Notes under the pieces: model-generated
The model's input: the letters and a program-made list of their open reading frames with translations, nothing else
What the model was told of the DNA's origin: nothing
Database searches by the model: none
In this document: positions 1,441-57,917 of the stretch, in pieces
Layout: each line of letters begins with the position of its first letter
Numbering within the stretch: the stretch's first letter is position 1
Program-made: the position numbers and the translations under genes
Origin: Candidatus Hydrogenedentota bacterium
Lineage (GTDB): Bacteria; Hydrogenedentota; Hydrogenedentia; Hydrogenedentales; SLHB01
NCBI GenBank assembly: GCA_963745075.1
Contig: CAVUWV010000010.1
Location: 64,001 to 128,000 of the forward strand
DNA length: 64,000 nucleotides
Direction: 5' to 3'

Positions 1441-1455
1441 CGAAGTACGTGAGCG

Positions 1456-4471: not shown

Positions 4472-4480
4472 GAGTCCGTA

Positions 4481-33374: not shown

Positions 33375-33379
33375 CTGCG

Positions 33380-34474
33380 ATGAGGTTCTCCATACTCGGG
33401 CAGGGTACCGCCGTCCCGCCGTATTCCTTGAGCTACGAAGAGGCCGTTGCCTATGCGCAGGCATCCTTTTGCGAGACGGAGGAACAACAGCGGCAAATCA
33501 AGCTGTTGTACCGCATGACGGGCGTGAAATCGCGCAATTGCTGCGTGCTGGACGGCCCCTCGGACATGCCGGACCGTCAGACTTTCTTCCCTGCACCGAA
33601 CGGGTCCGTCGGCAAGATGGGTCCCTCCATCCGCGAGCGCATGGCGAAGTACGAGGACAAGGCCCTCCCACTGGCGCTGGAAGCAAGCCGGGAAGCCTTC
33701 GAAGCTTCCGAAGTATTGCCAAGCGCGATTACGCACCTTGTCACGGTCTCGTGCAGCGGGTTCGCGGCGCCGGGCGTCGATATCGGGCTCATCAAGCAAC
33801 TGGGTCTGCCTCCGACCACCCAACGTGTGCACGTCGGGTTCATGGGCTGCCACGGCGCGCTGAACGGCATCCGTGCGGCCCGCGGGTTTGCGGAGAGCGA
33901 CCCCCATGCGCGTGTGCTGATCTGCGCCATCGAGTTGTGCAGCCTCCACTACCACTACGGCTGGAACCCGGACCAACTCGTCGCCAATGCCCTCTTTGCG
34001 GACGGTTCCGCCGCTATCGTCGGCGCCGCGACCGACGTTCAAAGCGAAGGTCCTTGGCAGGTCGCCGCCACCGGATCCTGCCTGATCCCCGATTCCGAAG
34101 AGGCCATGACCTGGCGCATCGGCAACAACGGCTTCATCATGTCCCTGTCCAGCCGCGTGCCCGAACTCATCGGCACGCACCTCCGTCCCTGGATGGAAGC
34201 GTGGCTCAAGGAGGCTGGGTTCACCATCCCCGACATCCAGTCCTGGGCCGTTCACCCCGGTGGCCCCCGCATACTCAGCTCCACCTGCAAGGCCCTCGGC
34301 CTCGAGAAAGACGCCGTCGCCGTCTCCCGCGAAGTCCTGAAGGAGCACGGCAACATGTCGTCTCCGACCATCCTCTTCATCCTCAAACGCCTGCGCGACC
34401 GCAACGCCCCCCGCCCCTGCGTTGCCCTCGGCTTCGGCCCGGGCCTGATGGCAGAGGCGACGTTGTTCGTGTAG
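33380..34474 (+). CDS. Type III polyketide synthase
   Basis: Cys-His-Asn triad: GFMGCHG, VHPGG, HGNMSS; also ALFADG, GFGPGL. Confidence 0.95.
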   Translation: MRFSILGQGTAVPPYSLSYEEAVAYAQASFCETEEQQRQIKLLYRMTGVKSRNCCVLDGPSDMPDRQTFFPAPNGSVGKMGPSIRERMAKYEDKALPLALEASREAFEASEVLPSAITHLVTVSCSGFAAPGVDIGLIKQLGLPPTTQRVHVGFMGCHGALNGIRAARGFAESDPHARVLICAIELCSLHYHYGWNPDQLVANALFADGSAAIVGAATDVQSEGPWQVAATGSCLIPDSEEAMTWRIGNNGFIMSLSSRVPELIGTHLRPWMEAWLKEAGFTIPDIQSWAVHPGGPRILSSTCKALGLEKDAVAVSREVLKEHGNMSSPTILFILKRLRDRNAPRPCVALGFGPGLMAEATLFV

Positions 34475-40497: not shown

Positions 40498-41502
40498 TTA
40501 CTCCATCCAGGTCTCGAACACGGCTGCAATATTCTCCGCGGGGTCCCGGTTGCCCCACTCGCACTGGGCCATGACTCCGCCGTTCCCTTTGTCCAGCGCG
40601 GCCCGGACCCGCCGCACCGCCGCGCGCACCTCGTCAACCGTCCCGAACGGCAGAATGCGCTGCCGGCAGATCTCGCCCCAAAACGTGATTTTTCCCTGGA
40701 ACTGCCGCCCGATCTCTTCGATGTTCATGCAGAAGAGCTGGCTGTTCAAGGCGTCCACGCCGATCTCGATCAAGTCCGGAATGATCTCGCGGATATGCCC
40801 GTCCGAATGAAAGAAGACCCGCTTCCCGGATGACTTGATGATGTCGCAGTACTCGCGATACATCGGCTTGAAGAAGGACCGCCACAGCTCCGGATCGATC
40901 AGCAGGCTGCCCTGCGCGCCCCAATCGTCCATGAATTGGATTCCTTCGACTTCCGTGGCCGCCCACAGTTCCAGTTCGCGCAGGAAGAAACCGTGCACCA
41001 TGTCGCGCAGGGCAAACAGTTCGGCCGGTTGCACCATCAAATCCACGAGCAGATTCTCCGTGCCCCGAAGGAACTGCATCCGCTCGAAGGGCCGCACGCC
41101 CGTCCCGGTACGCGTAAAGCGATCCGACGCCCGGCAATAGGCCGTGATGCCGGAGAAATCGGCGTTGTCCAAGATTTCGTTGGGCGGCGTGAAATCCTCC
41201 AACGCCGACCACTCGGCCAGGGGTGACCGCTTCACTTCACCGCAGACTCCGGGTTCGGCGACGGTCCAGGTGCAGTCCCATTCGTCGGTGTAAGAGCCGA
41301 CCTCAGCCGGGGTGCCCGCCATGCGTGTGCAGGGCCCGTAGGGGCTGGGCGGGTTGTCAAAGTCGACGGGGAACCGCGCCAGCAGCGTTCGCAGTTCCTC
41401 CGAACGGTACCGCTCCACCCCGGCCAGCCGCCATAGGTCGCGGGGTGCCCGGTCCGGTGTATCAAAGTCTAAACAGCGGTTTACACGCTCACGTGAATTC
41501 AT
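40498..41502 (-). CDS. UroD/MtaA (methylcobamide methyltransferase-like) family protein
   Basis: MNSRERV...PDRAP, LRGTEN, MDDWG-x-Q, FHSDG, GT-x-DEVR. Confidence 0.85.
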   Translation of the reverse strand: MNSRERVNRCLDFDTPDRAPRDLWRLAGVERYRSEELRTLLARFPVDFDNPPSPYGPCTRMAGTPAEVGSYTDEWDCTWTVAEPGVCGEVKRSPLAEWSALEDFTPPNEILDNADFSGITAYCRASDRFTRTGTGVRPFERMQFLRGTENLLVDLMVQPAELFALRDMVHGFFLRELELWAATEVEGIQFMDDWGAQGSLLIDPELWRSFFKPMYREYCDIIKSSGKRVFFHSDGHIREIIPDLIEIGVDALNSQLFCMNIEEIGRQFQGKITFWGEICRQRILPFGTVDEVRAAVRRVRAALDKGNGGVMAQCEWGNRDPAENIAAVFETWME

Positions 41503-41623
41503 GGTTCCCCCCTTCAGAGACGATACCGGATTGACCCCTAATCCATCTGCGGGAAAAGTATACCATCGGAACAAAACGAGAATCCTGCGACCGGGAAATG
41601 GTACTATTTAGCGGGGGAACACC

Positions 41624-42790
41624 ATGGATTACGACGAGATTGGCGTCATGCTCGGGCAGGCACCTGCCGCTTTCCATTCGGGTGGAGATGCGGAGTCGTC
41701 GCTACGCGAGCGATTCCGCCGAACCATGTTTTTCCAGCACGTCGACCGGCGCCCGAACTTCGAGTTTGGATATTGGGCCCGCACCATTGAGGTCTGGCAT
41801 TCCCAGGGTCTACCGGATTCTGTCGTCGATGAAGCGACAGCGTACGATTACTTCGGGATCGAGTCGTGGCCGGTGTTGAATGTCACGTCCAATCCGTTGC
41901 CATTGTACGAACGCACGGTCCTCGAAGAAACCGACGAATACGAAACCTATTGCGACGAACTCGGATGTATTGCGCGCATCAACAAGCACGGCGACCAGTC
42001 CATCCCACATTTCCTCGAGTACCCCGTCAAAGACCGCGCGACGTGGGAACCCTTCAAGGCGGCGATGGACCCGAACGCTCCGGCGCGTTGGGAGGACTTC
42101 GAGGAATCGCTCGTCACACTCAGTCGCGTCGATGCGCCCATTGGCGTGTACGGCGGCAGCATGGCGGGCGTTCCGCGCAATCTGATCGGCTTCGAGCATA
42201 TCGCCACGTTGCCCTACGAAGACCCCGCGTTTCTTACAGAGATCATCGACGCGTTTGGCGCGTGTACGGTGGCCGTACTCGAACGTGTGCTGCCGCGCAT
42301 CCAGGTCGACTTCTGCATGGGCTGGGAAGATATCTGCTTCAACATGGGACCCATCATCCCGCCGGACTTCTTTCGGGCCGTCGTCGGTCCGTGGTATCGG
42401 CGCATCGCAGACCTGCTGACGGCGCACGGCTGCTGCGTGTACACGACTGACACTGACGGCAACATTCTTCCCGTGGTAGACGCCTTTCTCGACAACGGCC
42501 TCAACACCATGTTTCCAGTCGAAGTCCACGCCGGTTCCGATCCCTGCCGACTGCGGGACGTGTATGGGAAACGCATCCGATTATGGGGCGGCGTGTGTAA
42601 GCGGAAACTGGCCCATTCCCGCGACGCCATCGACGCGGAACTGGAGCGGTTGCGTCCCTATGTGGAGCAAGGCGGATTTATCCCGGGTGTCGACCACCGT
42701 GTGCCGGCCGACGTGCCGCTCGACCTGTACAAGTACTATCTCGACCGCAAGCGCGACGTGCTGCGCGTGGGCGGCGAACCCAAATATTGA
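41624..42790 (+). CDS. UroD/MtaA family protein
   Basis: WEDIC, TDTDG, FPVEV, GGVCK, GGFIPGVDH-x-VP. Confidence 0.82.
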   Translation: MDYDEIGVMLGQAPAAFHSGGDAESSLRERFRRTMFFQHVDRRPNFEFGYWARTIEVWHSQGLPDSVVDEATAYDYFGIESWPVLNVTSNPLPLYERTVLEETDEYETYCDELGCIARINKHGDQSIPHFLEYPVKDRATWEPFKAAMDPNAPARWEDFEESLVTLSRVDAPIGVYGGSMAGVPRNLIGFEHIATLPYEDPAFLTEIIDAFGACTVAVLERVLPRIQVDFCMGWEDICFNMGPIIPPDFFRAVVGPWYRRIADLLTAHGCCVYTTDTDGNILPVVDAFLDNGLNTMFPVEVHAGSDPCRLRDVYGKRIRLWGGVCKRKLAHSRDAIDAELERLRPYVEQGGFIPGVDHRVPADVPLDLYKYYLDRKRDVLRVGGEPKY

Positions 42791-42798
42791 GCGAAATT

Positions 42799-43872
42799 AT
42801 GAACGGCATCGAACGCATATCGAACATTCTCCGACGCAAACCGGTGGACCGGATCGGTTTGTTCGAACACTTCTGGGGCGACACGCAGAAGAAGTGGTCC
42901 GGGGAAGGCCATCTCGCGCCGGACGAATCGTTGGAGGAGCACTTCGGATTCGACATGCAGTTGTGCTGGCCGTTCAACATGACCGCCAACCTCGATCACG
43001 AACCCGAGGTGCTGGAGGAAACCGAAGAGACCATCCTCACGCGTGACGGAAATGGCGCCGTGCTGCGGCGGCATAAACTGCACGACGCCACTCCCGAGCA
43101 TATTGATTTCCTCGTCAAGGATCGGGCGGCCTGGGAGGAGCATATCAAACCCTATCTCGAACCCGAACGGGCACGCATCGATTTCGCCGCCTATCGCAAG
43201 GCCCGATGTGAAGCGGAGCACCGTGGCCGTTTCTTTGGGTGGTCGGGCGTCAATGTTTTCGAGTTGATGCATCCCGTTTGCGGGCACGAACACATGCTCG
43301 TGGGCATGGCGGTGGATCCGGACTGGATTCGGGATATGGTTGATACCTACGCAAACCTCACCGTCTCCCTCATGGAGATCCTCTTCGCCGAGGAAGGGTA
43401 CCCCGACGGCCTTTGGTTCTACGAAGATATGGGGTTTAAGAAACGATCCTTCTTTTCGCTGGATATGTACCGGGAAATCATCCAGCCCGGCCACCGCCGG
43501 ACCATCGACTTCGCCAAGAGCCACGGGTTACCGGTCATCATGCATTCCTGCGGCTACGTCGCGCCCCTAATTCCGGGGATGTTGGAGTCCGGCATCGACT
43601 GCCTCCAGGTCATCGAGGTCAAAGCCGGGATGGACCTCCTGGAACTCTACCGGGCCTACGGCGACCGGCTTTCGTTTATGGGCGGAATCGACGTTCGCGT
43701 CCTCTATACCAACGACCGGGAGCAAATCGAGGCCGAACTGGCCGCGAAGATTCCGGCCGTTAAGGAGCACTACGGATACGTGTTGCATTCGGACCACTCC
43801 ATCCCCGATCAAGTCGACTATGAGAGCTACCGGTTTTTTGTTGACCGGGGGATGGAAATCGGACGATACTAG
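42799..43872 (+). CDS. UroD/MtaA family protein with H-x-C Zn motif
   Basis: YEDMG, MHSCG, EVKAGMD, GGID, HSDHSIP. Confidence 0.85.
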   Translation: MNGIERISNILRRKPVDRIGLFEHFWGDTQKKWSGEGHLAPDESLEEHFGFDMQLCWPFNMTANLDHEPEVLEETEETILTRDGNGAVLRRHKLHDATPEHIDFLVKDRAAWEEHIKPYLEPERARIDFAAYRKARCEAEHRGRFFGWSGVNVFELMHPVCGHEHMLVGMAVDPDWIRDMVDTYANLTVSLMEILFAEEGYPDGLWFYEDMGFKKRSFFSLDMYREIIQPGHRRTIDFAKSHGLPVIMHSCGYVAPLIPGMLESGIDCLQVIEVKAGMDLLELYRAYGDRLSFMGGIDVRVLYTNDREQIEAELAAKIPAVKEHYGYVLHSDHSIPDQVDYESYRFFVDRGMEIGRY

Positions 43873-43905
43873 ATAGCACTGTATATGGGAAGAGAGGGAG
43901 ATGCC

Positions 43906-44574
43906 ATGGAAGAGATTCTGAAGAACATCGCAACGTGTATCGAGCGGGGCAAGGTCAATGCCGCGTCGCCGTATCCGCCGGACTTGAAGGGGCAGGACGG
44001 CGCCGACGAGTTGACGAAAGCCGCGCTGGACATGGGAATCGATCCCAATGACGTGCTTGCCCAAGGCCTCGTCGTCGGCATGAATGCGATCGGCCGGAAG
44101 TTCAGCGAAAACAAGGTGTTCGTGCCCGATCTGCTCATGGCTTCCAAGGCCATGCAGGCCGCCATGGCACACCTGAAGCCCTTCTTCGAATCCGGCCAGG
44201 CCAAGCACCGTGGATCGTTTATCGTCGGCACGGTCCAGGGTGACCTGCACGATATCGGCAAGAATCTGGTCAGCATGGTTATGGAAGGCGGGGGCTGGGA
44301 AGTCATTGACCTCGGCGTTGACGTAAGCGCCGAGAAATTCGTCGACGCCCTGCGCGAACGCCCGGGAAGCGCCATCGGACTCAGCGCGTTGTTGACCACG
44401 ACTATGGTCAACATGGAGAAGACCGTAACAGCCGTACGCCAGGAATTCCCCGACACCAAGATCATCGTAGGTGGCGCCCCCCTGACCGCGGAGTTCGCAA
44501 AGAAGATCGGCGCGGACGCCTATTCGCCCGATCCGCAAGGCGCTCTGGATTATCTCGCCGGCGCGGTGGCCTGA
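43906..44574 (+). CDS. Stand-alone corrinoid (B12-binding) protein, MtaC / MetH cap+cob-like
   Basis: GTVQGDLHDIGKNLV (DxHxxG), DLGVDV, LSALLTTTM, VGGAP. Confidence 0.95.
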   Translation: MEEILKNIATCIERGKVNAASPYPPDLKGQDGADELTKAALDMGIDPNDVLAQGLVVGMNAIGRKFSENKVFVPDLLMASKAMQAAMAHLKPFFESGQAKHRGSFIVGTVQGDLHDIGKNLVSMVMEGGGWEVIDLGVDVSAEKFVDALRERPGSAIGLSALLTTTMVNMEKTVTAVRQEFPDTKIIVGGAPLTAEFAKKIGADAYSPDPQGALDYLAGAVA

Positions 44575-44621
44575 GTGCGGGTTTCCTCGTCGCGCATCGG
44601 GGGAAGCTGAGAGGGGGACTG

Positions 44622-45317
44622 GTGATGGACGGCTCCGTCGAGGAGTACGCCGTTGATTTCGCGTCCATGGGGTTGACTCCTGCCCACGTCGAGTGGGCTA
44701 TGGGCTATCCCATGGGACAGGCGCCCGATCCGCTGCCGGTATTGATCGCGGAGTTGTTGGAGGAAGCCCCTCATCAGTCAGCGGGGCGCGTGGGCGCGCG
44801 TACGCTTCCACCGGGTAGGGTACGCGTCGGGGACGATTGCCTGAGTCTGGACGGCACGGTATTTAGGACCGGCCCGCAGATTGCCGCATTGATGAGTGAC
44901 TCGGAATCCGTCGTGGTCTTTGTGGCCACGGTTGGTCGCTCGATGGATGCGTGGATCAAGGGGTACTTCGAGCGCGGCGACCCGATGCGCGGTTACGTGG
45001 CGGACACCATCGGCTCGGAAGCCGTGGAAGGGGCCGCCAACTGGTTGGAAGAACGAATCATGGACCGCGCGATCGAATCCAGCCACTACACGACCAGCCG
45101 GTTCAGCCCCGGCTTTTGCGACTGGGACGTGGACGAGCAACATCGTTTGTTTTCGTTGCTGCCGGAAGGATTCTGCGGCATACAACTCACGGATAGCGCG
45201 CTGATGCTGCCGGTCAAGTCGGTCAGCGGCGTTCTCGGCATCGGAACGGATTGCGAACGCGTGGTGACGGCTTGCAGCGTCTGCACACTGGAAACCTGCT
45301 TTCGGCGCAGGCTATAG
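44622..45317 (+). CDS. Stand-alone B12 methionine-synthase activation (AdoMet-binding) domain protein
   Basis: FVATVG, RFSPGFCDW...Q, LMLP-x-KSVSG, C-terminal CxxCxxxxC. Confidence 0.85.
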   Translation: MMDGSVEEYAVDFASMGLTPAHVEWAMGYPMGQAPDPLPVLIAELLEEAPHQSAGRVGARTLPPGRVRVGDDCLSLDGTVFRTGPQIAALMSDSESVVVFVATVGRSMDAWIKGYFERGDPMRGYVADTIGSEAVEGAANWLEERIMDRAIESSHYTTSRFSPGFCDWDVDEQHRLFSLLPEGFCGIQLTDSALMLPVKSVSGVLGIGTDCERVVTACSVCTLETCFRRRL

Positions 45318-45335
45318 ACCGCCAAATGGGGGATC

Positions 45336-46232
45336 ATGAACTCAATCCTAAATGCACTTCGGGAACGCAAGTACCTCGTCTCTGACGGGGGATGGGGAAC
45401 CTTCCTCGTGGCGGCCGGTCTGGGGCCCGGAGAATGTCCGGAACTGTGGAACGCCGATCGCCCCGACGTGGTGCGTACCATTGCATCGACCTACGCAGAA
45501 GCCGGCGCCGACATCGTCATGACCAACAGCTTCGGCGGTTCGCGCATTACACTCGAACCGTACGGCCTTGCGTCGCGCGCGTCCGAGCTGAACGAAGCGG
45601 CCGCACGACTTTCTCGGGAAGCCGTCGGCGACCGAGCGCAGGTACTCGCCTCCGTGGGGCCCACGGGCAAGATTCTCATGATGGGCGACGTGACCGAAGA
45701 AGAACTCTATGACGCCTTCAAGGAGCAAGCGGAGGCCTTGGCTCGCGGCGGTGCGGACGCATGCAGCGTGGAAACCATGACCGCCATCGACGAGGCCGCC
45801 ATCGCCGCTCGGGCGGTAAAAGAAAACACCGACCTCGAGCTGGTCTGTTCGTTTACCTTCAGCATGCGGACCGACGACGGCTACCGAACCATGATGGGCG
45901 TTTCCGTCGCGGAAATGGCGGAGGCCATGCTTGCCGCGGGGGCCGACGTGCTCGGCGTGAACTGTAGTTTGGGGCCCAAAGAAATGGTCGAGGTCGTGCG
46001 AGATCTGCATGCTGCCGCTCCCGACACGCCGATCCTCGTTCATCCCAACGCCGGTATGCCGAAGCGCGCCGATGATGGGACGGTGACCTATCCCGAGTCT
46101 CCGGAAGGTATGGCGTGCCAAGTGCCCGCCCTGGTCGCGGCTGGAGCCAGCATCCTCGGCGGCTGTTGCGGTACCGGTCCCGATCACATTCGCGCTATCG
46201 CCCGGACGGTGCGGGAGTTGGCAAACCAGTAG
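45336..46232 (+). CDS. Stand-alone homocysteine S-methyltransferase (MetH N-terminal domain)
   Basis: DGGWGT, AGAD-x-x-x-TNSF, GVNCS, PNAG-x-P, GGCCGTGP-x-HI (three Zn-binding Cys). Confidence 0.93.
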   Translation: MNSILNALRERKYLVSDGGWGTFLVAAGLGPGECPELWNADRPDVVRTIASTYAEAGADIVMTNSFGGSRITLEPYGLASRASELNEAAARLSREAVGDRAQVLASVGPTGKILMMGDVTEEELYDAFKEQAEALARGGADACSVETMTAIDEAAIAARAVKENTDLELVCSFTFSMRTDDGYRTMMGVSVAEMAEAMLAAGADVLGVNCSLGPKEMVEVVRDLHAAAPDTPILVHPNAGMPKRADDGTVTYPESPEGMACQVPALVAAGASILGGCCGTGPDHIRAIARTVRELANQ

Positions 46233-46245
46233 GACAAGCAATACG

Positions 46246-47613
46246 ATGAAACGTTTCGAGTCCCTGGTCGTTTCCGATCTCGCCGAACTGCACTTCGGTC
46301 GCGCGCCGAACCCCGTCCAGATCGCTCCACACGTTGTCGTTGGAGCGGGGGAGACCATTCCCGAAGTCAACTACATTCTCCCGTACAACAGCGAAGTCAG
46401 CGCGGCGACGCTCGAGAACGTCGTCGAGTTGTACCGGACGATGGCGCGTGGCGTGCTTCAACGCGCGGTGGACCTCGAAATCCCGCGTCTGATAATCGAA
46501 ATCGAACTGGTGTTCGAACTGACGGCCGAACCGGAGTGGGGGGAACGGGTTATCCGGGCAACCCGCGAGGCGATCGACGAGTTCGCAGAGCGCGGCGTTC
46601 AAGCTGCGCTGCGCACCACCGTGGCCGATATCCGCGACCGCGTACGCCCACCCCGAAACCGGACCAGCGGCGAAACGGAACTCGTCTTTGAAGCTTTTGA
46701 ACGCTGTGCTCCCTACTCCGATATTCTCTCCATCGAGTCAACCGGTGGAAAGGAAGTCTCGGACAACGCGCTGCTGCATTGCAGTGCCGGAGAACTCGTC
46801 TATGCCCTCGGCGTACTGGCGTCCAACGACATGGAGTTTCTCTGGAAACGCGTGTGCGCCATCGCTGCATCCCATGGAAAAGTTGCCGGCGGTGACGCCG
46901 CATGCGGATTCGCCAACACCGCCATGCAACTTGCCCGGAAACACATGGTTCCCACGGTGTTCGCCGCCGTGGTCCGTGCCATGGGCGCGGCACGTTCACT
47001 CGTGGCCGTCGAGTGCGGCGCGACCGGTCCCGACAAGGACTGCGCCTACGAGGGCCCGGTCCTGAAGGTCATCTCGGGTATTCCCATTGCCATGGAGGGC
47101 AAGTCCGCGGCCTGCGCCCATTCCAGCCCCCTGGGGAACGTGGCGATGGCCTGTTGCGACACGTGGAGCAACGAATCCGTACCGTACACGCAACTGTTCG
47201 GCGGCTACTCGCCGGAAGTCATGCTCGAACAGCTTTGGTACGACTGCAAACTGATGAACGAGGCGCTTCGCAGCGGGGATGCCTTGGTTCTGCGCGATTT
47301 GCTCACCCGTTCCGATACGGGAACCAGCGCGGAGGCGTTGGTGTTGGCGCCCGAGTCCTCCCTGCGGATTGCGCGTGCCATTGTGACTACTCCCGACCGG
47401 GCCGAACGGACGTGCCGTGCTGCGCTGGAAGCGCTTGCAATCATCACCGAAGCCCACCGCGCGGGAGCGCTGACCTTGCCGGACATCGAAATTCCGTGGC
47501 TTGACCGCATCCGGGAAGAGTTGGAAGCGTTTGCATCGGATGGTCCGCGTGCAGTGGAAGGTCAAACGGCCGCGCTTGCGGGGCAGTTCGTCGCGGAAGA
47601 GTACGGACTCTAA
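46246..47613 (+). CDS. mtaB: Methanol:corrinoid methyltransferase MtaB homolog
   Basis: PEVNY, SIESTGGKE, GDAACGFANTAM, GPDKDCAYE, EGKSAACAHSSPLGN, WSNESV, YDCKLMN. Confidence 0.88.
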   Translation: MKRFESLVVSDLAELHFGRAPNPVQIAPHVVVGAGETIPEVNYILPYNSEVSAATLENVVELYRTMARGVLQRAVDLEIPRLIIEIELVFELTAEPEWGERVIRATREAIDEFAERGVQAALRTTVADIRDRVRPPRNRTSGETELVFEAFERCAPYSDILSIESTGGKEVSDNALLHCSAGELVYALGVLASNDMEFLWKRVCAIAASHGKVAGGDAACGFANTAMQLARKHMVPTVFAAVVRAMGAARSLVAVECGATGPDKDCAYEGPVLKVISGIPIAMEGKSAACAHSSPLGNVAMACCDTWSNESVPYTQLFGGYSPEVMLEQLWYDCKLMNEALRSGDALVLRDLLTRSDTGTSAEALVLAPESSLRIARAIVTTPDRAERTCRAALEALAIITEAHRAGALTLPDIEIPWLDRIREELEAFASDGPRAVEGQTAALAGQFVAEEYGL

Positions 47614-47738
47614 CCCGTATTGCCGATTGGTGCAGCAGCTCTTGGCAGGGAATTCTTCCGGAACGCCCAGATCTTTCCCCTTGCGAATTCGCGCATTTCG
47701 TGGTTAGATCGTGATAGAGGCATATGGGAGGGGTTCCT

Positions 47739-48185
47739 ATGGCTCCGTTGCGCTTTATTGATGTCCTCCGGAAGGCCGAAGCGTTCCACCGGGATCTGAG
47801 CAACTTCTACCGTTCTCGTATCGCGGAAACTCAGGACGAGCACCTTCGGGTATTGCTGGACCATCTGAGCAGGCATGAAGCGTATATCGAGCACTGCCTC
47901 GAAGAATACGAACACGGCGCATCCAGAGGCGTGCTCGATGCCTGGTTCAAGATCTCACCTAATTTCCGTGCTCTTCCACGAATGCAGCAAATGCGGGTCG
48001 GAGAAGACCTGACACGGGACGCCTTGGTCCAAATGGGGCTCGACCTTGACCGCTTTCTCATCTCCATCTACCGGGAGCTTATCGGACGGGCCATCTCGAC
48101 CCCGCTGCGCGAGGCACTTACAGACTTGCTCGATATGGAGCACCGGGAAGAAATCAGGATGATGTGCAACGCTGCGGCCGACTGA
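47739..48185 (+). CDS. Ferritin/rubrerythrin-like helical hypothetical protein
   Basis: FH...Y...LLDHLSRHE...IYREL...LLDMEHRE four-helix pattern; GGAGG RBS. Confidence 0.55.
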   Translation: MAPLRFIDVLRKAEAFHRDLSNFYRSRIAETQDEHLRVLLDHLSRHEAYIEHCLEEYEHGASRGVLDAWFKISPNFRALPRMQQMRVGEDLTRDALVQMGLDLDRFLISIYRELIGRAISTPLREALTDLLDMEHREEIRMMCNAAAD

Positions 48186-48420: not shown

Positions 48421-49005
48421 TTACGTAGTGCCCAAGCCCGCAAATCCCATGAAGGCCATGGATAGAATGCCTGCGACCATCAACGCGATCGCAGTACCTT
48501 TCGCGACACCGGGTACATCGGCCAGGTTAAGCTGTTCCCGAATACCCGACATGATGATCAGGGCCAGCGCGAAGCCCAAGCCGGAGCCGATGCTGAATAC
48601 GACGCTCTGGGCGAAACTGTACTCCCGAAGCGTTTGAAACAAGGCGACGCCAAGAATGGCGCAGTTGGTGGTAATAAGCGGGAGATAAATCCCCAACGCG
48701 CGGAAGAGCGCGGGACTTGTCTTCTTGATGAACATCTCGACCAACTGCACGGTCGAAGCAATGACCACAATATAGGCGATAATGCGGAGGTATTCGGCGC
48801 CCGTTGCGATCAGCAATTGGTTGATCCCGTAGGTCAGTGTCGAACTGACCATCATGACGAATATGACGGCGCCTCCCATTCGCGACGCAGTATCCAACTT
48901 TCCGGATACCCCGAGAAACGGACAGATGCCGAGGAATACGGCCAACACCAGGTTATTGATGAGGAGCGAGTCGATAAAGATAAACGAGAGGGATGCCGTA
49001 TTCAC
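48421..49005 (-). CDS. rnfA: Rnf subunit A
   Basis: FLGICPFLG, YLPLITTNCAILG. Confidence 0.93.
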   Translation of the reverse strand: MNTASLSFIFIDSLLINNLVLAVFLGICPFLGVSGKLDTASRMGGAVIFVMMVSSTLTYGINQLLIATGAEYLRIIAYIVVIASTVQLVEMFIKKTSPALFRALGIYLPLITTNCAILGVALFQTLREYSFAQSVVFSIGSGLGFALALIIMSGIREQLNLADVPGVAKGTAIALMVAGILSMAFMGFAGLGTT

Positions 49006-49652
49006 GATGCCTGCTCCTCTGCCGTTGCCAGGACGGCTTTCCGGTCCTTACGCTCTCGCCAAACGGCGAAGGCGAGGAGCCACGCGCCCAAGGTGAAGAA
49101 TCCGCCGCTGGGTAGGAGAAAGATCACCCAGGGCTCATAATGGGAGCCGAACAAGTGGACACCCAGGAAAGTGCCCGCGCCCAGGATCTCGCGTACACTT
49201 CCCAGGCTTAACAGCGCGAGCGAGAAGCCGAGCCCCATTCCCAACGCGTCCAAAATGGCGCGGAAAACGGTGTTCTTTGATGCGAAGGCTTCGGCACGAC
49301 CCAGGATAATGCAGTTCACCACGATAAGTGGGACGAACGGGCCCAACGCGCGGGAAACGGGGATGCTGACCGCTTGGAGGATGTAGTCCGCCGCCGTAAC
49401 AAAAGTCGAAATGATGAGAATGTACGTGGCGATGCGAACCTGTTTGGGAACGATTTTCCGAACCATCGATACGACCGTACTCGACATGACCAGGACAAAC
49501 ATCGTGGCCAACCCCATCGCGATGGCGTTTTGGACCGAGTTTGTCACTGCCAACAGGGGGCACATTCCCAGTACCTGCACAAATACCGGATTCTCTTTCC
49601 AAAGCCCGTTGAAGAGTATATCGGTTTGCGAAGATTTCGCCCCGTCGCTCAT
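49002..49652 (-). CDS. rnfE: Rnf subunit E
   Basis: ENPVFVQVLGMCP, PLIVVNCIILGRAEAFA. Confidence 0.93.
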   Translation of the reverse strand: MSDGAKSSQTDILFNGLWKENPVFVQVLGMCPLLAVTNSVQNAIAMGLATMFVLVMSSTVVSMVRKIVPKQVRIATYILIISTFVTAADYILQAVSIPVSRALGPFVPLIVVNCIILGRAEAFASKNTVFRAILDALGMGLGFSLALLSLGSVREILGAGTFLGVHLFGSHYEPWVIFLLPSGGFFTLGAWLLAFAVWRERKDRKAVLATAEEQAS

Positions 49653-50350
49653 TGTGTGCCTGCCTTTCGAATCTCGTCCAGATGCTCCGTCACGATCGGG
49701 AGCATGGCATCCGTGCTAACGCGTATGATGTTGCCGACCGCCTTGGAAGAAATCGTTGCACCGGATATCGCGTCGATTTGCCATGGCTCGGACTTCGTCC
49801 CATGTTTTACCGTCACAATCTCATGGGCCGGCTTATCGGTTGTCGGATCTAACGCGACGTCGAGGTCGTTGAAATTGTCCAGGAACCCTGGGTCCGAAGC
49901 GATTTTCGCGCCCAGCCCGGGCGTTTCCTTGGATTCGAGCACCTTGAAGCCGTTGATGCACGCCTTGTCCGGTGAATAGCTGTAAAGCACATTGATGATA
50001 TCTTGATACCCGCGGCCGCTGGCCTCGATCGCGATGCCGGCTAGCTTCCCCGAGTCGTCGTAGCCCACGTAGATTTTCGGCAATGTGGACTTTTCATCCG
50101 GGTTTTCCGTGATGGTCCCATTCGCCAAATCGATCGCAAAGATCTTTTGCGTAGTTGCCGTTGACAGGACTTCGTTAACCGAATCCCGGATGACTTTCGC
50201 ACGATTCCGTGCGATCGCCGGACTGGCGAGTTGGAACACCGTCACAATCAATAGCCCGCAGAGCGTCGCGACCGCAGTCATGACCAGGATCATGTACGCG
50301 CTGCTCGTCTGCTTGGGCACGGGAGCGGCTTGTTCGGACGCCGCACTCAT
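49649..50350 (-). CDS. rnfG: Rnf subunit G
   Basis: TM anchor, ETPGLG, DAISGATISS FMN-attachment site. Confidence 0.92.
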   Translation of the reverse strand: MSAASEQAAPVPKQTSSAYMILVMTAVATLCGLLIVTVFQLASPAIARNRAKVIRDSVNEVLSTATTQKIFAIDLANGTITENPDEKSTLPKIYVGYDDSGKLAGIAIEASGRGYQDIINVLYSYSPDKACINGFKVLESKETPGLGAKIASDPGFLDNFNDLDVALDPTTDKPAHEIVTVKHGTKSEPWQIDAISGATISSKAVGNIIRVSTDAMLPIVTEHLDEIRKAGTQ

Positions 50351-51420
50351 TTCGATTCTCCCTTCTTTCGCACGCCGAAGATTCTTGGCTGCGTGAGATT
50401 ATCAATCAATGGGGTGCACGCGTTGCCGAGCAGGATGGCGTACATCGTCCCCTCGGGTAGTCCGCCTTTCAGGCGGATCACGATGGTCACCCCGCCAATC
50501 AGCGCGCCGTATATCCAGACCCCCAACGTGGTCGTCGGCGATCCCACCATATCCGAGGCCATGAACATGGCGCCCAGCATCAACCCGCCGGAAAACAGCA
50601 TGAATAACGGAGTGGGATAGACCTTGGGATCGGACAGGTAAAATGCCCCGCTGACCATCGCGGCCGTCAGCAGGATACTGACTGGTATCCGCCAGTTCAT
50701 CATTCCGCGGAACATGAGATATAGACCGCAGATCAAGATCAGGATGGATGACGTTTCACCGGTCGAGCCCGCGATTTTTCCAAAGAAGAGGTCCACCACC
50801 GCGGTCGCGTGATGGTCGAACTTCATCTGGGACAAGGGCGTGGCGCCCGAGAACCCGTCCAGCGATAGTCCCGAAAGAAACGACGGTGCGGTCTCCGGTC
50901 CCATGAACGGGAGCGACAAGGTTGCCGGATTGATCAGATGCATGAACCGGTCCGGGGACCACAAATCGGGCCAGAAACACGGGGCCCACGTGGTAATCGC
51001 GACGGGAAACGCCGCCTGAAGGAAAGCGCGCCCCACCAGCGCAGGGTTGAAGGGATTCATGCCCAATCCGCCGAAGAGTGCCTTGCCCAGTCCGATGGAA
51101 ATCACTCCGCCGACCATGGCCATCCAAAGCGGGAACGTGGGGGGCAACGTCAAGGCAAGCAGCAGTCCGGTAATCACCGCGCTGTAATCGCCGATCGTCG
51201 TTGGTTTGCCGGCCAATTTACAGAGCACATGCTCCGTCAAGATGCAGGTTCCCGTCGTCACTATGATGAGGAGCAACGCGCTTAACCCGAACGAGAAGAC
51301 GGCAAACGCCGTAACCGGCACCAGCGCGTAGACCACATTCAACATGATCGTATCCGTCCTCAGCCGCCCCTTGATATGGGGCGACGTCCGGATATCGATG
51401 GCATGGGTTCCTACACTCAT
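50347..51420 (-). CDS. rnfD: Rnf subunit D
   Basis: SPH, FGGLG-x-N-x-FNPA, SGATPL FMN site. Confidence 0.93.
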   Translation of the reverse strand: MSVGTHAIDIRTSPHIKGRLRTDTIMLNVVYALVPVTAFAVFSFGLSALLLIIVTTGTCILTEHVLCKLAGKPTTIGDYSAVITGLLLALTLPPTFPLWMAMVGGVISIGLGKALFGGLGMNPFNPALVGRAFLQAAFPVAITTWAPCFWPDLWSPDRFMHLINPATLSLPFMGPETAPSFLSGLSLDGFSGATPLSQMKFDHHATAVVDLFFGKIAGSTGETSSILILICGLYLMFRGMMNWRIPVSILLTAAMVSGAFYLSDPKVYPTPLFMLFSGGLMLGAMFMASDMVGSPTTTLGVWIYGALIGGVTIVIRLKGGLPEGTMYAILLGNACTPLIDNLTQPRIFGVRKKGESK

Positions 51421-52766
51421 GAGGGAACCTTTCTTTCGCGAGTAATCGCCTTGGCGACGCGGAAGTACTGCACCAAGGGGATGTTGGATGGACACACGAA
51501 CGAGCAACAGCCACATTCGAAACAGTCCATGAGATGGTATTCTTCGGCCATCAAGGCGTACTCCTTCTGGCGCGCCAACAGCCCCAGTTCCGAAGGATTC
51601 AGGTGCATGGGACAGGCCTCGACACAGGAAGCGCACTTGATGCATGGAAAGACGCGGCCGTTACGTATGGCCAGCGGATGATCCTTGGCGATGGCGAGAA
51701 TTCCGGTGACGCCCTTGGTAACCGGCAAATCCAGCGAACTCACGGCCGTCCCCATCATGGGGCCGCCCAGGATTACCTGGCATTCCCGCTCTTTGAACCC
51801 AACCTGGTCCATAATGAAGCGTAGCGGCGTTCCAAGTGCCATCAGATAGTTGCCCGGATTGCGGACCCCCGTCCCCGAGACGGTCACGACCCGTTCGATG
51901 AGACCTTGCCGGACCGGCAGCAACTCGCCGATCTGCGCAAGGGTTGCTACGTTGAATACCGCCACGCCCACGTCGATGGGGATTCCACCCGAGGGCACTT
52001 CTCGATTCAACAAGGCTTTGGTCAGCATCTTTTCCGCGCCCTGGGGATACTTGGCCTCGATGGCTTCGACCGTACACGGAACCCCTTCCGGGATGCCGGC
52101 ACGCATCGTTGCGACCGCGTCCATCTTGTTGGTTTCGATCCCGACGATCGCGCGTTTTGCGCCGAGCGCGCGAAGAACGATTCGTATGCCCTTGTAGATG
52201 CTGTCGACCTGCTCGAGCATCACGCGGTGGTCGGTCGTCAGGAAGGGTTCGCATTCGCACCCGTTGACGATCACCGTGTCCACCGACTTTCCTTCGGGCA
52301 GCGCGAGTTTGACGTGCGTGGGAAAGGCTGCGCCCCCCAGTCCGACCACGCCGGTTGCCTGGACCGCTTTGACCAGTTCCTGCGGGGAGAGGCTGTCGAT
52401 ATCCGTCTCCGCCCCGTACAGGATCTCCTGATTGGCGGCCTGGTATTGCTCGATAAAGATGGCAGGGGACATCGTGCCGCGGACGTCACGCGCCAAGCCG
52501 ATCTTTTCGATCCGGCCCGTGACCGGCGCGTGCATCGGAACCGAAACAAATCCACCGGGCTCGGCGATCGGCTCTCCGCGGGCGACCTCCTGGCCTTCGC
52601 GCACGATGGGTTTTGCCGGGGCGCCGGTGTGTTGAGACAAGGGAATGACTAAATGGGGCGCGAAGGGCAGCCGCCGAATCGGCTTGTCCTTGGTCAGGTC
52701 CTTACTCTCGGGAGGATGAATGCCGTGCGAAAAAGTCTTTCGCGACGTTAGCGCGGATAGCCACAT
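51417..52766 (-). CDS. rnfC: Rnf subunit C
   Basis: GLGGAAFPT, NGCECEP, YPQGAEK, GGPMMG, CIKCASCVEACP, CFECGCCSFVCP. Confidence 0.95.
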   Translation of the reverse strand: MWLSALTSRKTFSHGIHPPESKDLTKDKPIRRLPFAPHLVIPLSQHTGAPAKPIVREGQEVARGEPIAEPGGFVSVPMHAPVTGRIEKIGLARDVRGTMSPAIFIEQYQAANQEILYGAETDIDSLSPQELVKAVQATGVVGLGGAAFPTHVKLALPEGKSVDTVIVNGCECEPFLTTDHRVMLEQVDSIYKGIRIVLRALGAKRAIVGIETNKMDAVATMRAGIPEGVPCTVEAIEAKYPQGAEKMLTKALLNREVPSGGIPIDVGVAVFNVATLAQIGELLPVRQGLIERVVTVSGTGVRNPGNYLMALGTPLRFIMDQVGFKERECQVILGGPMMGTAVSSLDLPVTKGVTGILAIAKDHPLAIRNGRVFPCIKCASCVEACPMHLNPSELGLLARQKEYALMAEEYHLMDCFECGCCSFVCPSNIPLVQYFRVAKAITRERKVPS

Positions 52767-52873: not shown

Positions 52874-55800
52874 TTACGAGTTATACTTCGCCGCCCGCTT
52901 GACCAGTTTTTCGATCTCTTTTCCGGACTTGTCGGCCGGGATACCCGGTTGAATTGCCCGCGCGGCGCACTTTTCTGCGGCCTTCACCAAATCTTTGAAT
53001 GGGCCGCCTTTCGCGTTTTTGATGACCGCCTGCTTCTTGTCGTTCCAACCGAAGATCTTCGGATTCACGAGAACGCATTCGCCGCATCCCGTGCACTCGT
53101 TCGAGTCGAGATAGGGCGCGATGAACCCGTCACTCCCGGACGAACCGTTCCCCGATGCGGGCGCTACGGCCGTTTCCTTCGGAGCGGGTCCCGCGGATGC
53201 TTCCACCGGCGTCATCGCCGGCATGGGCGCGGATGGCATCACCATCGGCGCCGCGCCGTCTCCGCCCCCCGCGAGTTCGAGCAGCCCGGCGGTCAGTTTC
53301 TGCACGACATCCACACGGGTCTCATCTTTGATCGCCTGGATATCAACGTCTTTGCCGACACCTGCCAGTGCTTTCAACATGACCCAGAAGTTCCGGCGAT
53401 CTTCACACGCCTTGACGACCGGCTCGGCCACAATGACCCGGCTCAGCCGGTTCTTTTTGTCCACTGCCCACACGAAGGGGAACTTGCCCTCGCGGTCGTC
53501 CGCATCCAGTTGCAGGAACTCCGCCACCGGGACCATGTCATCGTTCCACGTATCCCGCGGGGCTTTCTTGAAGTGTTTGCGGAACCGCGCCTCCGTGACG
53601 GCGAAGTCGGCGAAGGTCAGCGGCAACTCCATGGAGCCCGGGCTTCCGTCTTCGTCCACATACGTCAACGTATAGGAAGGCCAATCGTCATCCAGAGCGG
53701 GGTTGCCGTCCAGATTGAAGCACTCTTCCGGCAACAGACCCTTGTCCGGGTCGTAGGTGAACACCGGATAGGCCCGCGACTCGAGGGCCAGCTTGCTCTG
53801 ATGCTTGCCCAGGTCGTCGCCGATGCCGTGTTCCGGCATACAGGCCGAGTACAGGTTAAAGAGGGCCGGCCGCTTGGCGATGATGCCGCGAATCATACCT
53901 TCGATGAGGTGCGACGTGTTCGCCATCGTACCTTGGAGCACATAGGTTGTCCGGTGGGCCATGCCGATGAGGCCGATTTCCTTCCGGATTTCTTCCTTAC
54001 CCTTGTGGGCCTTGCCGTACTGTGCCATATCCGACACCTGGCCGAAGAACCCGGACGTGCATGCCTGGCCGCCCGTGTTCGAATACACCTGCGTGTCGAG
54101 CACGACCACCTTGATGGGTTTGCCCGTCATCATCAGGCGGGAAAGGTTCTGGAAGCCGATGTCGTACATCGCGCCGTCGCCGCCCACGGCTACGACCGGC
54201 GGACACAGTGCGAATTCTTCATCCGAGAACTTGGTCCAGTCGAAGTACCGGAAGAAGTCATCGTGTTCCGCCGAATTGAACTTACCTTCGAGTTCCAACT
54301 CGGCCATGCGAATCGCTTTGAAGCCGTCGGCCATCTTGGCCATGTGGCCCTCAAAGACGCCCAAGGCCATGGAGGCGCTGTCCTGGAACAAGTGGTTCGC
54401 CCAGGGGAAGGGGTAGGGGTTGTAGGGATAGGTCGAACCCCACACCGAGGTGCAGCCCGTGCTGTTGATCATGCCCAGGCTCGAGCGTCCACGGCCGGTG
54501 GTGCCCTGGGTGTACTGCCATTTCAGATGCTTCAGTTTGGCCAGGAGCTGCGTGACGCGTTTCAGCCAATCGCTGTCCAACGGCGCACTCACTTTCGCTT
54601 TGTCGAGAGCGCCGGACAAATTCGACAGCGTCAGGTCCTTGTTCTTCAGCGCATCGATAGCGGAAACCATGGCGCTCGTATCGCCCACGTCGACCGATTC
54701 GGCCAGCTTCAGGCGGATATGCTTCTCAAGGCCCTGGATCATCTCTTCAATCTTGGTGATATGCCGTGCCACGCGGGGCCGCATCAGCGCTTCGACTGTC
54801 GCCGTGAACAGGTGCATGACGGTCTTCTCGCCGCACCCCAGGCAGGCGCCGTCGCCGCCGACCATCGATTTGTAGTTGGTCTTGTCGAGCAGCAACGTTT
54901 CGAGCGCACCGATGGCCTCCTCGAGATCGTCGATGCGGATGTAATCCTGGGAGGTATTCGGCAAGTCCAGCCAGAACCCCCAGTTCTTGCGCAAGGTCGT
55001 GACCGAATCCGACGTCTGCACCGTCATGTGCAGCGCATCATCCGGGCAAACCTGCACGCATTCCTTACAGCCTTTGCAGGTATACGGGTCGATGGTGATG
55101 GACAACAAGCCGCCGCTACCCGCTGCTTCCTTCTCCTTAAGGGAGTAGAAGGGTTTGGTCAGGGCGAACTTGAAGTCGCGGACTTCTTCCAGGAACCAGT
55201 CCAGTTCCTGCGACAGCTCGGCGCGCTCCGCTTCGGGGAGCGTGTGATCCTGCCGCAGGGCGTCCACCGCGATCTCGAGGTATGAATCGACCGCCGCGTC
55301 TTCGCCGCCCGCATTCATGAGGTCGCGCAGTTTGCGTTCCATCGTCCGGGACGCTTTGCGCAGGTGACGCACCGTTTTGCCGCCGACTTCAACGCGCTTG
55401 ATGGCGGTTTCAAACACTTCCGATACGGAGTTCACCAGACCGGGAATTGCGGAGTCGGGGCAGATCGTCCAGCACGAACCGCACCCGGTACATTTCTGCG
55501 GATCCCATTCCGGATGGTTGAACCGGATCTGCGTCATATCGCGGAACACGCCCGTCGCCGCCGGAATACAACTCATGCCGATAAACGGGTCGGTCAAATT
55601 GTCGCCGCCCTTACCGGTGAGGTAGAAGTTTCCGGTTTGTTCCCAGAACCGGTGGATGTCCGTCGCCGGGGCTTCACTTCCGGGCTGCTCCTTAAGCATC
55701 ACGGGAATCGCAATCTCTTTGCGGAGCGACGGGCTCTGGTCTTCGGACAAGGTCTTCTCGGTGATTTCCACGGATTCCACGAACCCGCGGCGCACCACTT

Positions 55801-57853: not shown

Positions 57854-57917
57854 GGCTCCACCTCAGTCTGTTTCAAGTGATTCCACGTGGCCGTCGTCCG
57901 ATACGCAGGATGTCATC

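Follow-up and report, generated by a model that had tools for sequence, protein, structure and literature searches.

The stretch of DNA considered here, referred to as the window, comprises 64,000 nucleotides from the genome of a Candidatus Hydrogenedentota bacterium (contig C10, positions 64001-128000; assembly of 6.8 Mb in 36 contigs, 89.7% complete). On its + strand lies an operon of six genes in the order UroD1-UroD2-CP-Act-HcyMT-MtaB (41624-47613), which encode two proteins of the URO-D family, a corrinoid protein (CP), a reactivation protein (Act) of the type known from the cobalamin-dependent methionine synthase MetH, a homocysteine methyltransferase (HcyMT) and a homolog of the methanol:corrinoid methyltransferase MtaB. 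The original prediction, made from the sequence of this region, described the last four genes as co-oriented and closely spaced, and all four are present at this place on the + strand with the corresponding Pfam matches. The two URO-D genes (41624-43872) immediately precede them in the same orientation, which makes the unit an operon of six genes. In the following, genomes and compared stretches carry our own labels (G and L, respectively), the genome of the window being G000. The features of the region are:

40498..41574, - strand: UroD3, URO-D family, divergent from the operon (Pfam URO-D, 5.9e-12)
41624..42790, + strand: UroD1, URO-D family, candidate methyl-donor methyltransferase subunit (Pfam URO-D, 1.1e-05, 25.1 bits, cut-off 23.9)
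42787..43872, + strand: UroD2, URO-D family, candidate methyl-donor methyltransferase (Pfam URO-D, 1.8e-16)
43885..44574, likely true start 43906, + strand: corrinoid (cobalamin-binding) carrier protein (Pfam B12-binding, 1.1e-25; B12-binding_2, 3.5e-18)
44622..45317, + strand: protein with a MetH reactivation (S-adenosylmethionine-binding) domain of the TM0269 type (Pfam Met_synt_B12, 2.6e-10, 40.6 bits, cut-off 25)
45336..46232, + strand: HcyMT, stand-alone MetH-type zinc homocysteine methyltransferase, proposed methyl-corrinoid:homocysteine methyltransferase (Pfam S-methyl_trans, 8e-73)
46246..47613, + strand: homolog of the methanol:corrinoid methyltransferase MtaB, encoded at the end of the operon (Pfam MtaB, 3.9e-144)
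46196..47697, no strand: mtaB insertion/deletion (indel) of about 1.5 kb, compared to 81 bp in the collinear locus L225 of the same genus (blastn)

UroD1 and UroD2 overlap by 4 bp, the end of UroD2 and the open reading frame (ORF) of the corrinoid protein are 12 bp apart, and the gaps between the genes for the corrinoid protein, the reactivation protein, HcyMT and MtaB measure 47, 18 and 13 bp. Within the corrinoid ORF, the second ATG at position 43906 fits the consensus start of 48 homologs better than position 43885. The reactivation protein starts one codon later in the collection's own copy and then has 230 amino acids (aa). Scans for promoters and terminators between 39000 and 48600 yielded 4 and 8 candidates, which is not above the 3.3 and 8.5 expected from shuffled DNA, and at the gathering score Rfam has no match in the window. 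A look-up of sequencing runs for 41624-47613 returned no RNA run and six DNA runs with word shares of at most 0.17.

The MtaB homolog matches its Pfam family (PF12176) over the full length (481.4 bits compared to a cut-off of 25, model positions 2-442 of 460) and aligns end to end with MtaB of Methanosarcina barkeri (2i2x, 302 bits). The original prediction had assigned the Glu/Cys/Cys zinc positions to the SIES, DAAC and KDC motifs. This assignment holds, as these motifs align on E164, C220 and C269 of 2i2x, which we take to be the zinc ligands of that structure, and correspond to E164, C220 and C266 in the window protein. The three positions are invariant in 70 of 70 full-length homologs, among them the sequences of Acetobacterium, an organism that uses MtaB for methanol.

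The statement that every module of MetH except the pterin-binding one is present has likewise been borne out, since the homocysteine, B12 and reactivation domains occur as separate proteins and no Pterin_bind match lies in the cluster or the window. All 48 corrinoid protein sequences compared keep the DxHxxG motif (D120, H122, G125) without change. All 50 HcyMT sequences compared share the zinc cysteines C210, C277 and C278 together with D17, G18, E146 and T147, which belong to the DGG and ET motifs; homocysteine binding involves the DGG and Glu motifs. Compared to solved structures, HcyMT reaches 146-160 bits with the homocysteine domains of MetH (the best being MetH of Thermotoga maritima with 160), 60-67 bits with BHMT and 58 bits with the homocysteine S-methyltransferase 5dml. 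A complex prediction for HcyMT and the corrinoid protein received the mark 'weak support', with a score of 0.60 against 0.00 for the best control, a pass that may reflect likeness only because solved MetH structures exist. This mark is reached by 116 of 157 solved complexes and by 2 of 215 mismatches, where 18 of the 157 and both mismatches score 0.60 or less. The individual runs had at least 74% of their contacts in common, with a predicted local distance difference test value (pLDDT) of the partner of at least 82.

The best solved relative of the reactivation protein is TM0269 of T. maritima (1j6r, 1e-09), which the MetH of that organism needs for its reactivation. An AlphaFold model (pLDDT 92.9) retrieves 1j6r with Foldseek (E 1.4e-12, TMt 0.86), followed by the reactivation domains of MetH. 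An extra feature of the subfamily is a set of four cysteines, namely C165 within an SPG[FY]C motif and C217, C220 and C225 within a C-terminal C-x2-C-x4-C arrangement, all invariant in 63 of 63 sequences (230-aa numbering). By alignment, TM0269 has a glycine at the position of C165. Confidence in the model is low only at the C-terminal motif, and the cysteines may represent a putative metal, Fe-S or Zn site, possibly for electron input.

The URO-D proteins were compared to the NCBIfam MtaA and mtaA_cmuA models, whose cut-offs are 235-400 bits. UroD2 and UroD3 reach 28-38 bits (UroD2 28-36 bits on MtaA-type models, UroD3 37.6 bits on mtaA_cmuA with its cut-off of 235), and UroD1 has no match. 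Neither UroD1 nor UroD2 has a PDB sequence match at E <= 0.01, and the ESM Atlas returned only generic URO-D clusters for both. Invariant residues are H268, C270, D276, D278, D357 and H358 among 12 orthologs of UroD1, and H253-x-C255, H334, D336 and H337 among 17 orthologs of UroD2. According to PMC10418091, S-methyltransferases of the URO-D superfamily contain a His-Cys-Cys site, whereas O-methyltransferases swap one or both cysteines for carboxylates. Judged by these residues, UroD1 and UroD2 would resemble the O-methyltransferase kind, and the non-Cys/Cys metal residues hint at an O-methyl compound, a weak hint because the URO-D alignment was made without an MtaA reference. In most related loci, UroD2 immediately precedes the corrinoid gene, and the position that UroD3 has in the window is conserved in L008, L009, L120, L123-L125, L224 and L225.

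In the genome as a whole, 9 B12-binding matches, 20 URO-D matches and one pectinesterase were found. Two of the roughly 20 URO-D matches (315 and 209 bits) look like true uroporphyrinogen decarboxylases, and the low scores of the others suggest that a genome without a stand-alone pterin methyltransferase harbors a large family of paralogs that are candidate methyltransferases.

For the scanned ORFs of the window, no pterin-binding, methanogenesis, Wood-Ljungdahl or RACo family was detected, in agreement with the original prediction; a RACo/RamA homolog is encoded elsewhere in the genome on contig C20, outside the cluster. A protein of the MTTB family is also absent from the window, MtaB and the URO-D proteins being found in that place. 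The whole-genome Pterin_bind search proposed earlier revealed matches only in the ORF of MetH and in a dihydropteroate synthase (DHPS), so that no stand-alone pterin methyltransferase is present in this 89.7% complete assembly. The second match had been considered as a methyl-tetrahydrofolate methyltransferase and was rejected, as it scores 327.5 bits on TIGR01496 compared to a cut-off of 162.6. The same pattern of two matches, MetH and DHPS, occurs in four of five relatives searched and in all three Bacteroidota genomes with the arrangement HcyMT-MtaC-MtaB-Act. The fifth relative (G085) has three Pterin_bind matches, two in DHPS-like fragments and one in an 827-aa ORF. A search of the window's genome for CdhC/acetyl-CoA synthase (ACS) gave no match.

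The surroundings of MtaB were examined in 60 genome loci found with the MtaB protein, in which the neighbors were labelled by phmmer with the window's own proteins. In 11 of the 60 loci, MtaB has HcyMT as a neighbor; these loci are of Hydrogenedentota type (L008, L009, L011, L012, L014, L015, L016, L022) or belong to Bacteroidota (L049, L057, L061). A pterin methyltransferase stands beside MtaB in nine loci, all from Bacillota (Acetobacterium, Desulfosporosinus and others), and no locus contains both. The pterin enzyme is present in 9/9 Bacillota loci and absent from the window cluster and from all Hydrogenedentota and Bacteroidota loci among the 60. The survey proposed with the original prediction finds HcyMT beside MtaB without a pterin enzyme in Hydrogenedentota and, independently, in Bacteroidota; clusters without mtaB and mtaB genes without HcyMT are described below. 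In the Bacteroidales loci L057 and L061, the genes form a minimal co-oriented block HcyMT-MtaC-MtaB-Act with a divergent URO-D gene upstream. Among 10 loci scanned with Rfam, no riboswitch precedes an MtaB-type cluster.

Among the 135 genomes that serve as species representatives of the phylum, 35 encode MtaB. Within the MtaB clade of the window, HcyMT is directly upstream in 11 of the 18 Hydrogenedentota loci with enough upstream DNA. A second Hydrogenedentota clade of MtaB comprises 11 loci (L097-L107, from G120, G117, G081, G092, G015, G112, G010, G011, G009, G023 and G026) and scores higher on the Pfam model than the window's MtaB (540-574 bits). It has no corrinoid, HcyMT or URO-D neighbor, and in L099, L103 and L107 an AraC-type regulator lies upstream.

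Within the genus of the window, mtaB is present in three of six genomes, while the surrounding region is collinear with about 75% DNA identity. The genomes G106 (99% complete) and G107 contain HcyMT with 82% identity and no MtaB. The gene order in L224 and L225 is that of the window, namely PadR, response regulator, UroD3, UroD1, (UroD2,) CP, Act, HcyMT, the ORF at 47724-48185 and rnfA/E/G. By blastn, window positions 41752-46195 correspond to 4429-8860 of L225, and 47698-47913 correspond to 8942-9161. The approximately 1.5 kb between these blocks (46196-47697), compared to 81 bp in L225 (8861-8941), hold exactly mtaB, which makes this a one-gene indel.

The stand-alone HcyMT family of about 297 aa is large, with 7638 proteins at E <= 1e-10 among 8000 scored candidates. 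In 80 metagenome loci with HcyMT relatives of 49-68% identity, neighbors were judged in the available flanking DNA, and 38 of these loci have a corrinoid protein, a URO-D protein, RACo, MTTB or MtaB nearby (corrinoid protein 24, URO-D 26, RACo 4, MTTB 1 in L154, MtaB 1 in L143). Six loci show the order UroD(1/)2-MtaC-HcyMT with at least 1.4 kb of downstream DNA and no MtaB, L154 has the order MTTB-MtaC-HcyMT-Act and L188 the order URO-D-RACo-HcyMT. No stand-alone pterin protein was found in the 80 loci with a query that did find the Acetobacterium enzymes. Taken together, the corrinoid protein and HcyMT are constantly accompanied by the URO-D genes rather than by mtaB.

Another recurrent arrangement is MtaC-URO-D-HcyMT-CobW, whose URO-D protein ends in a thioredoxin-like domain and, with 175 bits on the methylcobalamin:CoM model, resembles MtaA. 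It was observed in L147, L161, L165, L167, L171, L173, L176, L177, L049 and truncated relatives, and resembles a variant of the proposed methionine-forming scheme that works on methyl-sulfur or methyl-selenium compounds. In L189 and L190, metK-HcyMT adjoins MTHFR and a MetH-like gene. Here, the HcyMT member of L189 is 53% identical, and a SAM-II riboswitch precedes metK (4476-4535, 51 bits compared to a gathering score of 44), the only regulatory hit. This arrangement marks a member of the HcyMT family as part of an S-adenosylmethionine (AdoMet)-controlled, biosynthetic regulon.

When 96 HcyMT rows were placed in a quick maximum-likelihood tree with the genome's own MetH domain as root, the neighbor types clustered. 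The label for an MtaB neighbor changes at least three times, and the pair L057/L061 stands apart from the Hydrogenedentota clade, which supports an independent recruitment of MtaB beside HcyMT in Hydrogenedentota and Bacteroidota. A sample of 401 Bacteroidales genomes (the order of G135) contains full-length MtaB in 14 genomes, one further fragment with three stop codons, and HcyMT in 50 genomes. HcyMT is present in 11 of the 14 genomes with MtaB compared to 39 of the 387 others (odds ratio 33), where the Fisher p = 1e-8 overstates the evidence, since kin are not independent and no taxonomy is at hand for these genomes. In 10 of the 11 double-positive genomes, MtaB and HcyMT lie on different contigs.

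Considering which genes are present, their motifs, folds, synteny and co-occurrence, and the lack of a pterin methyltransferase, the operon at 41624-47613 is rather probably a modular, corrinoid-dependent and folate-independent methionine synthase with methanol and URO-D donors. From the comparative evidence, a transfer from methanol via the corrinoid protein to homocysteine is favored. The observation underlying the original prediction is thereby confirmed, while its interpretation is partly supported. MtaB does lie in a pterin-less set of MetH modules. Nevertheless, the formulation that MtaB takes the place of the folate module was too narrow, as two URO-D genes, which had been missed, head the operon and are its constant partners. 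Likewise, synteny and co-occurrence favor the proposed route from methanol over a methyl-cobamide to homocysteine, but it would be an extra route beside MetH and MTHFR, and mtaB is absent from G106, G107 and the six metagenome loci.

From these comparisons, we infer the catalytic steps, the direction of transfer, methanol as substrate of MtaB and the kind of URO-D substrate as follows. The small corrinoid protein would act as the methyl carrier. Its Co(I) form would be loaded by interchangeable donor enzymes, either MtaB, divergent URO-D, MtaA-like URO-D or MttB-like proteins. On the acceptor side, HcyMT would transfer the methyl group from methyl-Co(III) to homocysteine, yielding methionine. 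Co(II) would be restored by the TM0269-like protein through reductive methylation with AdoMet, perhaps aided by its own four-cysteine metal site, and in other lineages RACo may serve as the repair system instead. The window would thus contain two donor systems, with MtaB drawing on methanol and the UroD1/UroD2 pair on another methylated substrate. Here, the URO-D, corrinoid, reactivation and HcyMT genes would form the core and mtaB an accessory one-gene module that adds methanol as donor. The whole route would run beside the ordinary MetH/MetF route.

Several observations weigh against this reading. The genome encodes a full four-module MetH (one ORF of 1255 aa) as well as MTHFR, so that the operon would be an extra route and not the only one, with no evident need for it. 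By NCBIfam, the corrinoid protein shows no specific likeness to MtaC, its best rows being generic methyltransferase corrinoid proteins (MtgC with 192 bits, MtaC with 101-110 bits, all below cut-off). Furthermore, mtaB is dispensable, as G106 and G107 have the collinear operon without it; the core thus works, or at least persists, without MtaB. In seven of the 18 informative Hydrogenedentota loci, HcyMT does not lie beside MtaB. Three of these have a corrinoid gene and no HcyMT (L111, L113, L125), and in the other four MtaB stands alone (L108, L114, L118, L122), where the genomes encode an HcyMT of 62-69% identity elsewhere, in G007 as UroD2-MtaC-HcyMT. A close HcyMT (E <= 1e-80) is found in 82 of the 135 Hydrogenedentota genomes, and within the phylum its presence in 25 of 35 genomes with MtaB compared to 57 of 100 without MtaB amounts to a weak association that is not significant (p = 0.16). 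For the orphan genes in L108 and L114, an Rrf2 regulator was observed upstream. The gap of 866 bp between Act and MtaB in L113/L010 was considered as a decayed HcyMT and rejected (best tblastn E 0.18; the ORF located there has no Pfam family).

Some of the exceptional loci bear on the main alternative, a methanogen-like MtaABC system, which we regard as unlikely. Here, MtaB would load the corrinoid protein, UroD1 and UroD2 would act like MtaA and pass the methyl group to a thiol cofactor, tetrahydrofolate or another acceptor, and HcyMT and the reactivation protein would be a side branch or later add-on. The arrangement UroD1-UroD2-MtaC-MtaB in L111/L013 and L125/L018 keeps this explanation alive, since it lacks HcyMT and fits a URO-D protein as the acceptor-side enzyme. 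The respective genomes, G113 and G101, are 99% and 95% complete and contain no close HcyMT at E <= 1e-80, the only homolog in G113 being 43% identical. Termite-gut Bacteroidales loci with the order MtaB-URO-D-MtaC-Act (L032, L033, L037, L038) point in the same direction, as does the URO-D pair being the most constant neighbor of the corrinoid gene. The explanation is weakened by the mirror-image clusters, UroD1-UroD2-MtaC-HcyMT without MtaB, in the six metagenome loci and in G106 and G107, which would have no donor enzyme if URO-D were on the acceptor side. Furthermore, the low scores of UroD1-3 on MtaA-type models (0-38 bits) speak against a role like that of MtaA, and no coenzyme M context or pterin enzyme was found. 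The three proteins also lack the His-Cys-Cys triad given for S-methyltransferases in PMC10418091, as judged from the alignment without an MtaA reference. A different substrate for this clade of MtaB, i.e. another small methylated or hydroxylated compound in place of methanol with the operon still feeding homocysteine, is improbable. MtaB scores 418.7 bits on the NCBIfam equivalog model MtaB_Meth, below its cut-off of 720, shares only about 42-46% identity with the Acetobacterium and Bacteroidota homologs, and has relatives in the phylum, the second clade, without any corrinoid neighbors. Nevertheless, the end-to-end alignment with the M. barkeri enzyme and the invariant zinc ligands argue for methanol, and to our knowledge no other substrate has been described for the MtaB family.

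The methyl transfer to homocysteine itself could also be read differently. HcyMT might belong to the MmuM/YagD/YitJ type and methylate homocysteine from AdoMet or S-methylmethionine without cobalamin, sharing only its regulon or neighborhood with an unrelated corrinoid system, which we hold to be very improbable. On NCBIfam, the YitJ-type model (250 bits) and the bacterial BHMT-type model (238 bits) are indeed ahead of MetH (184 bits), and 42 of the 80 loci with HcyMT relatives have no corrinoid-system neighbor in the DNA examined, some of them on long contigs with unrelated genes. However, all of these scores are below cut-off, the solved homocysteine domains of MetH are far closer than BHMT and 5dml, and the gene is placed between the corrinoid and reactivation genes and mtaB with gaps of only 13-18 bp, a link to the corrinoid system that is met in two phyla. 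In addition, 'BHMT'-like stand-alone proteins of Alphaproteobacteria are the homocysteine subunit of a split cobalamin-dependent synthase according to PMC12478193. Scarcely credible is the reverse direction, in which methionine or an S-methyl compound would be the methyl source, HcyMT would methylate the corrinoid protein from it and a URO-D protein would take the methyl group further. Transfer between methylcobalamin and homocysteine is strongly favored thermodynamically toward methionine in the second half-reaction of MetH, and the reverse scheme leaves no role for MtaB and no acceptor pathway, as neither a pterin methyltransferase nor ACS is present. The family member behind the SAM-II riboswitch with metK also belongs to a biosynthetic regulon. 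On the other side, corrinoid-thiol methyl transfers are reversible in principle, a bidirectional use of split-MetH subunits has been proposed for MtgD, and methyl-sulfur or methyl-selenium roles have been proposed for URO-D clusters (PMC12478193 and PMC10418091, respectively).

For the folate-independent methionine synthase, the role is probably anabolic, serving the methionine/AdoMet methyl pool rather than energy metabolism, because without a pterin methyltransferase or ACS there is no visible other way to oxidize or assimilate the methyl group and because homocysteine cannot be a catalytic sink for large fluxes. It is a speculation that the second route saves reduced C1 units when methanol or methoxy groups are at hand, for example via the organism's own pectinesterase.

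A broader view, which we put forward tentatively and hold to be possible rather than probable, is that HcyMT and the small corrinoid protein represent a general folate-independent methionine-synthase core of anaerobic heterotrophs. The donors would be exchanged like cassettes, methanol being used through MtaB, O-methyl compounds through divergent URO-D, methyl-sulfur or methyl-selenium compounds through MtaA-like URO-D and quaternary amines through MttB-like proteins. In non-methylotrophic polysaccharide degraders (Hydrogenedentota, Bacteroidales), the whole methionine/AdoMet methyl pool might then be derived from pectin methanol or plant methoxy groups. The gain or loss of mtaB would act as a methanol switch between sister species, and the four-cysteine site would be a built-in electron entry replacing flavodoxin or RamA.

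If the methionine synthase exists as proposed, bacteria that do not belong to the methanogens, acetogens or methylotrophs would incorporate methanol into biomass directly, namely as the methyl group of methionine and AdoMet. This would represent an unrecognized sink for methanol, and probably for other methylated plant or osmolyte compounds, in anoxic soils, sediments and guts, where these bacteria would compete with methylotrophic methanogens for the same substrate. The flux would probably be small and anabolic, and with a normal MetH present it would be an addition to known metabolism, not a replacement. Furthermore, methionine synthase would appear as a modular platform in which events affecting a single gene can replace the methyl-donor half, with a natural presence/absence pair in one genus. 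As it involves four small proteins and an inexpensive labelled substrate and comes with its own negative control, the operon offers a simple system for testing the idea of pterin-less synthases derived from MetH.

Next to the operon, a conserved helical ORF of 153 aa (47724-48185), without a Pfam or NCBIfam family, separates the operon from rnfA in the window and likewise in L224 and L225. It is followed on the minus strand (48421-52766 and 52874-58832) by rnfA, rnfE, rnfG, rnfD and rnfC, then an ORF of 1659 aa with pyruvate:ferredoxin oxidoreductase (PFOR), ferredoxin and thiamine pyrophosphate domains, and finally an RnfB-like Fe-S protein (57918-58832), so that the giant oxidoreductase lies inside or beside the rnf cluster. 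The Rnf genes and the PFOR-like giant ORF next to the operon mark the organism as an anaerobe. Family scans of the rest of the window revealed nothing related to the cluster. At 31485-34474, neighboring genes on the + strand code for a class I methyltransferase, for a protein weakly similar to lycopene cyclases and, with chalcone/stilbene synthase domains, for a type III polyketide synthase, and at 3-8273 a MoxR-type AAA ATPase, a DUF58 protein, several VWA-domain proteins and BatD stand in a row, which resembles an operon of the Bat/aerotolerance type.

Among the closest known systems is MetH, including the T. maritima form with its separate TM0269. The operon has a homocysteine zinc domain, a His-on B12 domain and an AdoMet reactivation fold, for each of which MetH or TM0269 is the most similar match. 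In contrast to MetH, they are three separate small proteins without a pterin (methyl-tetrahydrofolate) module in the cluster, and a normal MetH is encoded in the same genome. The reactivation protein differs from TM0269 by its invariant four-cysteine motif, the first cysteine of which TM0269 lacks. With MtaABC of Methanosarcina and the MtaB/MtaC systems with a pterin-binding MtaA in acetogens, the operon shares an MtaB with a Glu/Cys/Cys zinc site near a corrinoid protein. Here, however, the acceptor side is neither an MtaA-type URO-D protein nor a pterin enzyme, the corrinoid protein is not MtaC-like by NCBIfam, and a methanogenesis or Wood-Ljungdahl context is absent.

The folate-independent 'core' methionine synthases MesA-MesD, for which MtrA or CoFeSP were proposed as donors (Price et al. 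2021, PMC7857596), share the proposed logic of forming methionine from homocysteine and a methyl-corrinoid protein without methyl-tetrahydrofolate. They are MetE-like (PF01717 fold), not similar to the homocysteine domain of MetH, and the main text contains neither 'methanol' nor 'mtab'. The Type 1 mlp clusters (Kountz and Balskus preprint, PMC10418091) comprise several URO-D methyltransferases and a corrinoid protein without a tetrahydrofolate methyltransferase, and a figure legend suggests that the methyl group may be recycled into methionine. These clusters contain MtaA-like His-Cys-Cys proteins, a Ram/RACE activase and no HcyMT or MtaB, whereas the window URO-D proteins are far from MtaA and RACo is encoded elsewhere in the genome. 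The metagenome clusters MtaC-URO-D(+thioredoxin-like)-HcyMT-CobW are closer to Type 1 mlp than the operon of the window is.

In Ruegeria pomeroyi (MtgB/MtgC/MtgD/MtgE), knock-outs revealed a single corrinoid protein at work in both the demethylation of glycine betaine and a split methionine synthase, and a three-part split MetH was described for Phaeobacter inhibens (Mausz et al. 2025, PMC12478193). This is similar to the operon in that a corrinoid protein is common to a substrate-specific donor methyltransferase and a stand-alone homocysteine subunit. The system differs in being aerobic and Alphaproteobacterial, in using glycine betaine as donor, in the pterin subunit MtgD being essential for both functions, and in a reactivation by RamA and DUF1638 that is not TM0269-like.

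The literature searches found no printed description of a version with MtaB or divergent URO-D proteins, subscription journals being outside their coverage. A closely similar system is that of Williams et al. 2022 (PMC9324843), who found an MttB/MtgB homologue with HcyMT, a corrinoid protein and an activation protein in Electryoneota and other bacteria alongside a normal MetH and proposed a novel methionine synthesis with an unknown donor. The words 'mtab' and 'methanol' do not occur in its supplements and are not mentioned in the passages of the main text at hand. The same three MetH-derived proteins, the lack of a pterin module and an adjoining donor methyltransferase connect both systems, and one locus of their kind, L154, is present in our collection. 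The donor there belongs to the MttB family, whereas MtaB and two URO-D proteins are found here. Hence, with respect to the literature searched, the MttB version is already hypothesized in print and the MtaB/URO-D version is new.

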